A stretch of 32,000 bases of DNA from Candidatus Midichloria mitochondrii IricVA (GCF_000219355.1 NC_015722.1:240001-272000), one strand, 5' to 3'; positions 28,367-30,612 are shown, numbered from the stretch's first letter. Translations and numbers: made by a program. Notes: generated by a model from the sequence alone, not told the origin.

Positions 28367-30612
28367 TAACTTAAGTCCTCTTTGATTTCTTTTATAGATT
28401 CTAAATCGAATAATATGTTAACAGATTTGTTATACTGCTTTAATAAAAAACTTAGTTTACCACGAGCGTAATTTCTAATATTATAAAAATCCTCCTCAGA
28501 CAGTTTAAAAGTCTTTTTAAAAGATTTATCAGCTAGCTTATTTGGAAGGAAGATTCGTGTAGGAATATTATAAATAACCTTTTCAAAGAATTGAAAGTTA
28601 TCATAAAGTTCTTTGTTATAATTAAACGTGAAAATTATAATTGCATTTTTGGCATTTAGTTTTTCCAGACTTGATAACAATTTTTCAACCAAAACCTGTT
28701 TTTCAAAAATTCGAAAATCACTGTTAACAGCGATAATTGTAGGAGTATCATCTAAAAATTCAGGAAGCTTGCTGATTAATAACCTTAAAAGAACTGTAGA
28801 ATATTTTTTTTCTAACAGAGAAAAATCTATACCCACATATTTATTGTTCTTAAGGACCTCTAAACTATCTGGGCCCTCAAAAATTTTGATAAAATTTTCA
28901 TTTAGATAATTGATTTTTTCTTTAATAACGGCATCAGGCAAGGATACTGCAAATTCTTTTAAAGCTTCATAAATGCTAGTTTTATTTTCAATATGATTAA
29001 TTAAGCTGTTTAAGACATTTTCTTCTGCCGCTGAAACAGTTAACGTACCAAAAATTAGATAACAAAAAACATTCTTTGTATAAGTTTTCTCATCATCACC
29101 AAAGCCGATTTTAAAGATGGGGGAATCTTTTGCAGAAACCTTAAAACTCTGGCCTCCTAACTTACTAATAAACTTTTCATTGTTTCCTTTTAAGTCTAAA
29201 AAAATAATTCTGGGATTAAGTCTAACCGCACTGCTAAGTAAAAATTTTAGTAGGATTTCTTTTCCGCTCTCTTCAGGGCCCACTATCATAGTATGACCAT
29301 TATCATTTTGATGGAAATTAAAATAGTAAGGCAGCCTTTTTCTGTTTTTAAATAAAGCAACTGGTGGCCCCCATTTACTACCATTATAAGAGCCCATAGA
29401 AGTGCTTGGTACAAAGGCAAAGGTGGAAGAGAATTTCGCTAGATTATAATTTTTTCTGAAGCTATATTGAAAATTGCCAGGGATGATGGACCAAAAGCAT
29501 AGCGGCATATAGAAATCTTCTCTTACTAAAAGGATACCTATATCTTCAAAAATTTGCATTATTTTTTCTATACTGTTATCCAATTCTTCTGCACTTTGGC
29601 TATATAAAATTAGGTTGATTTGTCTTTCACAATAATCAGTTTTTCCAACCATTTCTGCAGAAATTAGCTTATCTATATAGGAAGCCGCTAGTAATCTCTC
29701 ATTTCTTCCGGCCTCTAGGAAATTTGCTTGTTTTTTTATTTCCTTTATTGCAATAGCTCTAGGAGTAAAGACAACAGATTCGCTAATTATATACTTAAAG
29801 TTATGTTCAAGAATCGCAGTACAGTCCTCTATGCTCAAGTCGTGAAAGGGCTTAAAGCTAAAAACAGCGACGAAAGTCTTATTACTTTCTTCTTCCATCT
29901 CTTCTAACTCTATTTTGTTAAAATAGTAGTTAATTTTCAAACTTGCTAATTGCTCTGAAGCATCGCATGGTTCTAATTCTATATCTTTTTGCTTTAAATG
30001 TATCAGATTATAGATAAAAGAAAGTGGTTCAGAATAATATTTATTACTTTCCTTATCTTTCTTGATTCCAAGTAATTTAGCGCCAAATCTACTGCTTGAT
30101 TTAATAATATTATTTGAAATTTCACTTAAGAAGATCCTAGCTTCTTCAAGCTCTTTCAAGTGATGTTTTTTATAGAAATGAAAAAATAAGATTTCATGTA
30201 ATTGCTGAGGGTTAAAAGGACTCTTCTTAGCACCTTGAATAACAATTGATATATACACTGTTGCAAGTAACTGGCTACTCCATTGATTGAACTCACTCCA
30301 CTTGTCATTAATATTTTTTGCGAATTCTGAAGAAAAATTTGCCTTAATTTCTATATTGCTGAAATTGTTTAAGGTATGAATATATACCGCAACCTTATTA
30401 TCCTTTATGTAACTTGCTATTGAACTTCTAATCACTTCTCTTAAGGGGATACTATTGAAGTTTGTATCATTAGGCTCGAATCCACTAATAGCCACAATCT
30501 GTATTAAATCACCATTTTTTGTGATTAAGGTATTAGGATCATAATGACAAGTAATAGGTATGTAATTTGATATTTTAGGATTTATATAAATATCATTGCC
30601 ACTATCCAGCAT
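28366..30612 (-). CDS. virB4: VirB4/TrbE/CagE-family type IV secretion ATPase homolog with degenerate nucleotide-binding motifs
   Basis: 748-aa ORF preceded by AAGGAG 8 nt upstream of the ATG. The N-terminus IPITCHYDPNTLITKNGDLIQIVAISGF fits the VirB4 N-domain pattern. The core WGPPVALFKNRKRLPYYFNFHQNDNGHTMIVGPEESGKE is collinear with the VirB4 region W.G.P......P..FNFH....GHT.I.G.TGSGKT. The C-terminus IPTRIFLPNKLA...FKLSEEDFYNI....RGKLSFLLKQYNKSVNILFDL is typical of VirB4. Confidence 0.85.
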   Translation of the reverse strand: MLDSGNDIYINPKISNYIPITCHYDPNTLITKNGDLIQIVAISGFEPNDTNFNSIPLREVIRSSIASYIKDNKVAVYIHTLNNFSNIEIKANFSSEFAKNINDKWSEFNQWSSQLLATVYISIVIQGAKKSPFNPQQLHEILFFHFYKKHHLKELEEARIFLSEISNNIIKSSSRFGAKLLGIKKDKESNKYYSEPLSFIYNLIHLKQKDIELEPCDASEQLASLKINYYFNKIELEEMEEESNKTFVAVFSFKPFHDLSIEDCTAILEHNFKYIISESVVFTPRAIAIKEIKKQANFLEAGRNERLLAASYIDKLISAEMVGKTDYCERQINLILYSQSAEELDNSIEKIMQIFEDIGILLVREDFYMPLCFWSIIPGNFQYSFRKNYNLAKFSSTFAFVPSTSMGSYNGSKWGPPVALFKNRKRLPYYFNFHQNDNGHTMIVGPEESGKEILLKFLLSSAVRLNPRIIFLDLKGNNEKFISKLGGQSFKVSAKDSPIFKIGFGDDEKTYTKNVFCYLIFGTLTVSAAEENVLNSLINHIENKTSIYEALKEFAVSLPDAVIKEKINYLNENFIKIFEGPDSLEVLKNNKYVGIDFSLLEKKYSTVLLRLLISKLPEFLDDTPTIIAVNSDFRIFEKQVLVEKLLSSLEKLNAKNAIIIFTFNYNKELYDNFQFFEKVIYNIPTRIFLPNKLADKSFKKTFKLSEEDFYNIRNYARGKLSFLLKQYNKSVNILFDLESIKEIKEDLS

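Follow-up and report, generated by a model that had tools for sequence, protein, structure and literature searches.

RvhB4-II proteins, the second VirB4 paralogs of the Rickettsiales, have been described, with the Midichloriaceae covered, as proteins of VirB4-like size without adenosine triphosphatase (ATPase) active sites that are probably incorporated in some way into the rvh type IV secretion system (T4SS) (Gillespie et al. 2015, PMC4676284), and a 2025 preprint (PMC12407924) still describes what the duplicated rvh components do as a mystery. Here we analyze a VirB4-like protein encoded on the minus strand of a 32,000-nucleotide stretch of the genome of Candidatus Midichloria mitochondrii IricVA, a tick symbiont of the Midichloriaceae (GCF_000219355.1 NC_015722.1:240001-272000), hereafter the window, from whose first letter positions are counted unless a contig is named. 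An earlier note, based on the sequence of the window, had drawn attention to this protein as a VirB4 homolog with degenerate nucleoside triphosphatase (NTPase) motifs. We consider it very probable that the protein is a catalytically dead RvhB4-II that has kept the VirB4 fold and would act as a non-catalytic subunit assembling with the rvh machine. For the window itself, the value of the analysis lies mainly in the annotation, 28366-30612 (minus strand) being correctly labeled rvhB4-II, neither a working ATPase nor a pseudogene.

The gene (28366..30612, minus strand) is an uninterrupted open reading frame (ORF) of 748 codons encoding a full-length VirB4 paralog of 748 aa with a degenerate ATPase site, and a ribosome-binding site (RBS), AAGGAG (30621..30626, minus strand), can be read in the sequence 8 nt 5′ of the ATG at 30612-30610. 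The NCBIfam VirB4 model TIGR00929 aligns to residues 11-742 (E 5e-83), and phmmer matches the protein to TrwK, the VirB4 of plasmid R388, at E 1e-28. Homology to the VirB4/TrbE/CagE proteins thus extends over the full length, but the TIGR00929 score, at 279.6 bits, is under the curated family cut-off of 643. The only Pfam match is the CagE_TrbE_VirB N-terminal domain (PF03135, E 7.9e-15) at residues 188-386 (29455..30051, minus strand); the P-loop families PF19044 and PF12846, which match the RvhB4-I of the same genome, gave no match on the window protein in Pfam.

The ATPase site was located by alignment to TrwK and to RvhB4-I. At the Walker A position, residues 445-452 (29257..29280, minus strand), the window protein reads GPEESGKE against GQSSSGKT in TrwK and GPTGSGKT in RvhB4-I, and at the Walker B position, residues 626-633 (28714..28737, minus strand), it reads IIAVNSDF against VFDEFW and VLDEAW, with Asp630 changed to Asn and Glu631 to Ser. 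Motif C (canonical FFFDKDRGAE) is represented at residues 470-479 (29176..29205, minus strand) by IFLDLKGNNE, in which LDLKGN replaces FDKDRG, while motifs D and E (canonical WLKVLRKLN...VIFATQS) correspond to SLEKLNAKN...IIFTFNY at residues 648-667 (28612..28671, minus strand), where the Arg-Lys pair of motif D has become Asn-Ala (R653 to N, K654 to A) and motif E has Phe for T663 and Asn for Q664. The comparison by phmmer with the solved TrwK/VirB4 of R388 (7o41) pairs GQSSSGKT with GPEESGKE, FMYVFDEFW with TIIAVNSDF and FATQ with FTFN, and MAFFT alignments with 9-24 RvhB4-I and 4 outgroup VirB4 sequences give the same registers; GKT and DE occur in all canonical VirB4 sampled. Translation and alignment therefore return the Walker A and Walker B strings that the earlier note had read at these same residues and nucleotides, the second lacking an Asp-Glu pair, as well as its later TQ motif, IIIFTFNYN, which we place at residues 658-666. 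Its description of the P-loop as degenerate stands with one correction. Two acidic residues do sit inside the loop, where Glu has replaced the second Gly (E448) and the Ser/Thr (E452), but the losses are limited to these two positions and G445, G450 and K451 of the G-x4-GK skeleton are retained. A regular-expression scan of the whole protein returned no other [AG]x4GK[ST] and no hhh(h)D[DE], leaving no canonical Walker A or Walker B elsewhere in it. The presence of degenerate NTPase motifs in a VirB4-like protein is hence confirmed and, judging by its sequence, the protein has lost the residues that VirB4 needs for ATP hydrolysis: the Walker B Asp-Glu, the Walker A Thr and motifs C, D and E.

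An AlphaFold2 (AF2) model, built from an alignment of 56 sequences with a predicted local distance difference test (pLDDT) score of 87.3 and a predicted template modeling (pTM) score of 0.83, points to a complete two-domain VirB4 fold in which the C-terminal RecA-like P-loop domain is retained. The model has a strand at 441-444, a loop and a helix from 451, so that the strand-P-loop-helix unit is kept over 441-465, and the Walker B strand is kept at 625-630. Foldseek aligns the model to full-length TrwK/VirB4 chains with E values from 1e-41 to 1e-37 (8rtd/7o41, E 1e-41 over ~790 columns) and to the VirB4 C-domain 4ag6 with a target-normalized template modeling score (TMt) of 0.67. Along this fold, identity to the genome's own RvhB4-I is 21% over residues 1-400 and 25% over residues 401-748, and among the 142 columns invariant in canonical VirB4 the window protein retains 16 of the 43 that lie in the N-domain and 37 of the 93 in the C-domain. 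Because both measures are similar in the two domains, divergence is global, with the catalytic residues among the losses, and the idea of a selectively spared N-domain was rejected on the same figures. What survives of the initial claim that the N-domain and the extreme C-terminus are well conserved is its second half: conservation of the N-domain does not exceed that of the C-domain, but the last 48 residues (701-748) stand out at 37.5% identity, the C-terminus reading ...RGKLSFLLKQYNKSVNILFDL... Among 29 Midichloriaceae RvhB4-II copies, conservation is highest at residues ~350-450, the junction of the two domains, and lowest at residues 500-650 of the ATPase core, a profile opposite to that of RvhB4-I.

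The genome, 1,183,732 bp in one contig, contains exactly two VirB4 homologs. The other is the canonical RvhB4-I at C1:670927-673266, ~400 kb from the window gene, which scores 832 bits to TIGR00929 and carries GPTGSGKT, VLDEAW and FATQS. A VirB4 match was found in all 61 sampled genomes of the order, and two matches in most of them. Two maximum-likelihood trees, with 67 and 88 proteins and with sphingomonad and Brevundimonas VirB4 as the root, were built quickly and have long branches; both separate a clade of RvhB4-I copies on short branches from a clade of second copies on long ones (Shimodaira-Hasegawa-like approximate likelihood ratio test, SH-aLRT, 100 each). The window protein falls in the RvhB4-II clade, within the Midichloriaceae, its relatives including Candidatus Bandiella, Cyrtobacter and Jidaibacter. 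With RvhB4-I at that distance and VirB10 at C1:416459, the locus lies apart from the rvh clusters, and no VirB-type ORF was seen among the other ORFs of the window, Pfam having been run on the neighbors at 21305-25261 and 31000-31326 only. The window protein thus has a canonical RvhB4-I in the same genome, a place in the paralog-II clade, defective motifs at normal VirB4 length (748 aa versus 806 aa) and a locus of its own. Paralogy, which includes the clade placement, taxonomy and the published account (PMC4676284) agree with the note's suggestion that it may be the deviant second VirB4 of the Rickettsiales, so that its assignment to RvhB4-II is supported; the same three lines of evidence also favor the proposal of a structural, probably non-hydrolysing VirB4 paralog. 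It is a fairly derived member, lacking the Walker A Thr and the Walker B Asp-Glu, and not the most extreme, the Gly-Lys pair also having been lost in some Midichloriaceae copies.

The distribution of motifs across the order gives this degeneration a history. The RvhB4-II of early-branching families keep GPxGxGKT and DEAW, although their motif C and the Gln of motif E have already been altered (ATES); K474 and D475 of motif C are lost in almost all RvhB4-II, whatever the family. At two such early-branching loci, L149 (G044:C3:48500-53900) and L151 (G012:C1:1544500-1550100), an RvhB4-II-type gene with GKT or GRT and DE heads a full operon, followed by VirB6 (TrbL), VirB8, VirB9 (CagX) and VirB10 (TrbI). 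On the tree of 88 proteins the Walker B Asp-Glu is lost in three changes, the main one at the base of a clade of 39 (SH-aLRT 85) that comprises the copies from Rickettsia and Tisiphia (DN, DS), several other families and all Midichloriaceae, in which Walker B mostly reads Asn followed by a variable residue. Inside this clade at least 12 separate changes have removed GK[ST]. The GKE of the window protein is one of them and is common to four relatives at 48-93% identity; the closest, 93% identical, reads GPEESSKE, the Gly before the Lys having been replaced as well. Since the Asp-Glu pair was lost before the repeated decay of the P-loop, the order of events suggests that hydrolysis may have been lost first and that nucleotide binding then stopped mattering. 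This sequence of retained GKT and DE in early-branching RvhB4-II, one main loss of DE and at least 12 later losses of GK[ST] is the new, if modest, element of our results.

Several lines of evidence bear on the persistence of the gene. In Midichloriaceae RvhB4-II pairs lacking Asp-Glu, the ratio of non-synonymous to synonymous substitution rates (dN/dS, Nei-Gojobori) is 0.04-0.11, compared with 0.011-0.037 for RvhB4-I of the same genome pairs by the same method. Non-synonymous change is two to four times faster in RvhB4-II than in RvhB4-I, yet clearly constrained: these equally degenerate orthologs are under strong purifying selection, which indicates that the gene is maintained by selection in the family. 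A match at E<=1e-70 is present in 35 of the 47 family genomes, nearly all as a full-length open frame, and four matches are broken by stops or ended by a contig end, a decayed copy in a second Midichloria genome (G106) among them. In that genome and a third one of the genus (G105), RvhB4-I and VirB10 are fragmented or broken by stops; RvhB4-II has 17 stops at 73% identity in G106 and is gone from G105, from which it follows that the gene breaks quickly once the system is abandoned. The decay of rvhB4-II together with the T4SS in these congeners provides indirect support for its assembly into the rvh T4SS. As an observation in its own right, the whole rvh system is decaying in both congeners and intact in the genome of the window, in agreement with a published account of T4SS decay in the non-mitochondrial Midichloria of Ixodes holocyclus (PMC11650858). 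Contigs from tick RNA libraries, the metatranscriptomes of two studies, cover rvhB4-II and the gene downstream of it, and one bridges the junction, although such contigs give neither strand, expression level nor transcript ends.

That downstream gene (25754..28366, minus strand) shares a TAATG stop/start overlap with rvhB4-II and encodes an exported Cys-rich protein of 870 aa (32 Cys) with a signal-peptide-like N-terminus and no Pfam or NCBIfam match. A homolog directly follows rvhB4-II in another Midichloriaceae genome, a metagenome-assembled genome (MAG), at E 3e-33, and large Cys-rich ORFs (492-1465 aa, 16-63 Cys) occupy the same place in at least five other families. The giant ones, at L142:175-3006, L145:198-4592, L146:2882-5629, L147:1943-5680 and L148:146-3166, resemble the window's partner in being exported, in having no Pfam family and in their Cys content (32-63 Cys with the window's own), and are weakly similar between families; no Cys-rich ORF lies behind rvhB4-II at the Bandiella locus. 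The 870-aa gene was also considered as a VirB6 and rejected, on a 19-residue hydropathy scan without any hydrophobic segment, the lack of a TrbL match and its 32 Cys; a true VirB6 gene behind rvhB4-II is confined to early-branching lineages. Upstream of rvhB4-II, 30700-31715 (minus strand) contains only broken frames with FG-GAP-like and Thr-rich stretches and looks like a dead gene. Within it, positions 30922-31254 (331 nt) are skipped in RNA-library contigs of a ~97%-identical strain, which have 28 other letters instead, a strain-level indel. Further away, an N-terminal part of AAA-ATPase_like type (21305-21730) and a nuclease part of PDDEXK_9 type (22314-22793) form separate ORFs at 21305-22793 (plus strand) and look like a broken accessory gene, and a weak DDE transposase match (PF13612, E 1.8e-4) at 24818-25261 (plus strand) marks an insertion sequence fragment between metG (22790-24271) and the two-gene rvhB4-II unit.

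A number of points weigh against a dead subunit of the rvh machine. For this protein, as for every RvhB4-II, the loss of hydrolysis is read from sequence; Lys451 and the G-x4-GK skeleton persist, so that nucleotide binding may still be possible; and the four closest relatives all share Asp632, the Asp of NSD. The gene has no linkage to other rvh genes and assembly with RvhB4-I is putative. The dN/dS values come from Midichloriaceae orthologs without Asp-Glu other than the window gene, and contigs from RNA libraries can contain DNA, which leaves them consistent with expression and no proof of transcription. In one Midichloriaceae genome (G085, 1.1 Mb in one contig), RvhB4-I is intact (823 bits) and a VirB4 hidden Markov model finds no second VirB4, RvhB4-II having been either lost while the T4SS was kept or diverged beyond detection; some lineages may hence be able to do without the paralog in their rvh. 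Some of these points would suit an enzyme that still works as an ATPase through non-canonical residues, with Glu452 coordinating the metal and Asp632 serving as catalytic carboxylate. Lys451, Gly445 and Gly450 are indeed retained, P-loop and strand geometry are kept in the AF2 model, and GKE with N[ST]D is common to the four closest relatives at 48-93% identity. Such an enzyme nevertheless seems to us very improbable, considering that motifs C, D and E are gone too, that GKT and DE are present in all canonical VirB4 sampled and that the 93%-identical relative has Ser for Gly450. Equally selected Midichloriaceae orthologs moreover differ at these very positions (GKN with NK, IKN with NE, or no P-loop at all); as orthologs under equal selection vary there, the conserved function cannot depend on those residues. 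The GPEESSKE of the closest relative and the 12 or more losses of GK[ST] after the loss of Asp-Glu likewise suggest that the P-loop is not needed.

That the gene is a relic without function, on its way to becoming a pseudogene, is extremely improbable. It evolves fast, scores far below the curated VirB4 cut-offs, is broken or lost in two congeners and was not found in G085, all of which such a relic would explain. Its uninterrupted 748-codon ORF and RBS, however, stand in a reduced genome with many dead genes nearby, orthologs with 0 stops are retained across family and order, dN/dS in the family is 0.04-0.11 and the fold is confidently predicted, while the G106 copy, whose T4SS is dead, has 17 stops at only 73% identity and thereby illustrates how fast neutral decay breaks the frame. 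An unlikely alternative keeps the protein functional and separates it from the rvh channel, in a two-gene module where it might serve, for example, as a cytoplasmic-face platform for the export, folding or surface display of the Cys-rich exported protein, encoded where classical operons have virB5, after virB4. The TAATG translational coupling, the homologous partner after rvhB4-II in another Midichloriaceae genome, the giant Cys-rich ORFs (492-1465 aa, 16-63 Cys) that at least five other families have directly behind rvhB4-II, in some cases an rvhB4-II with GKT and DE, and the absence of VirB5 from rvh (PMC12407924) all fit such a module. Against it, Bandiella has no Cys-rich ORF at that position, the partners are weakly similar between families and have no recognized domain, the signal-peptide-like N-terminus of the partner implies no obvious need of a VirB4, and rvhB4-II decays with the whole rvh system in congeners.

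A catalytically dead RvhB4-II within the rvh machine is thus our preferred reading. The protein would burn no ATP and probably would not need to bind it, and our best guess is that it joins the rvh machine as a non-catalytic subunit. VirB4 dimers are part of the solved R388 complex, according to the titles of entries 7o43 and 7o41, which makes pairing of RvhB4-I with RvhB4-II a natural hypothesis; RvhB4-II may accordingly pair with the active RvhB4-I in putative VirB4 dimers of the inner-membrane complex or, alternatively, act as a docking platform, either role being possibly tied to the Cys-rich exported protein encoded directly downstream. A fuller scenario, which we put forward tentatively and regard as rather unlikely in its entirety, is that RvhB4-II was originally an active ATPase in a second, complete T4SS operon, a state that early-branching Rickettsiales with GKT, DE and a B4-B6-B8-B9-B10 operon would still display, and that hydrolysis disappeared in essentially one event, at the root of the sampled clade with the named host-associated families (Rickettsia, Tisiphia, Midichloriaceae). 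The P-loop would then have decayed freely, at least 12 times, and the protein would have been kept as an ATP-independent scaffold, either as outer partner of RvhB4-I in inner-membrane VirB4 dimers or as platform for a Cys-rich exported protein replacing the missing VirB5. A VirB4 kept by selection after loss of its ATP site would offer a clear example of a pseudo-enzyme within a secretion machine, and the comparative picture of intact early motifs, one main Asp-Glu loss and repeated P-loop loss may help in choosing constructs for biochemical and structural work.

ATPase-dead RvhB4-II have already been published, Midichloriaceae included, and the comparative detail presented here is a modest addition to that record, not a new kind of thing. 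With the known RvhB4-II (VirB4-2) of Rickettsia, Orientia, Anaplasmataceae and Midichloriaceae (Gillespie et al. 2015, PMC4676284; Giengkam et al. 2023, PMC10732058; Schon et al. 2022, bioRxiv 2021.08.31.458344), the window protein shares its status as second paralog, its clade and its VirB4-like size, as well as faster evolution than RvhB4-I, defective ATPase motifs and a locus apart from other rvh genes. It differs from the RvhB4-II of a Rickettsia endosymbiont and of Tisiphia, which keep GKT and the Walker B Asp (DN, DS), in reading GKE and NS, and its gene departs from the known ones in being translationally coupled to that of a Cys-rich exported protein. The genome's RvhB4-I and the TrwK/VirB4 of R388 (PDB 7o41, 8rtd) have the same domain order and fold over the full length and share with it the FNFH...GHT..G lead-in to the P-loop and the C-terminal FLLKQ block; identity to them is, however, 21-25%, the Walker A Thr, the Walker B Asp-Glu and motifs C, D and E are replaced, and the Pfam P-loop families are unmatched. 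The RvhB4-II of early-branching Rickettsiales MAGs (e.g. L010, L020), finally, belong to the same paralog clade as the window protein but retain GKT (or GRT) and DE, have ATES for ATQS and are encoded in a full B4-B6-B8-B9-B10 operon.

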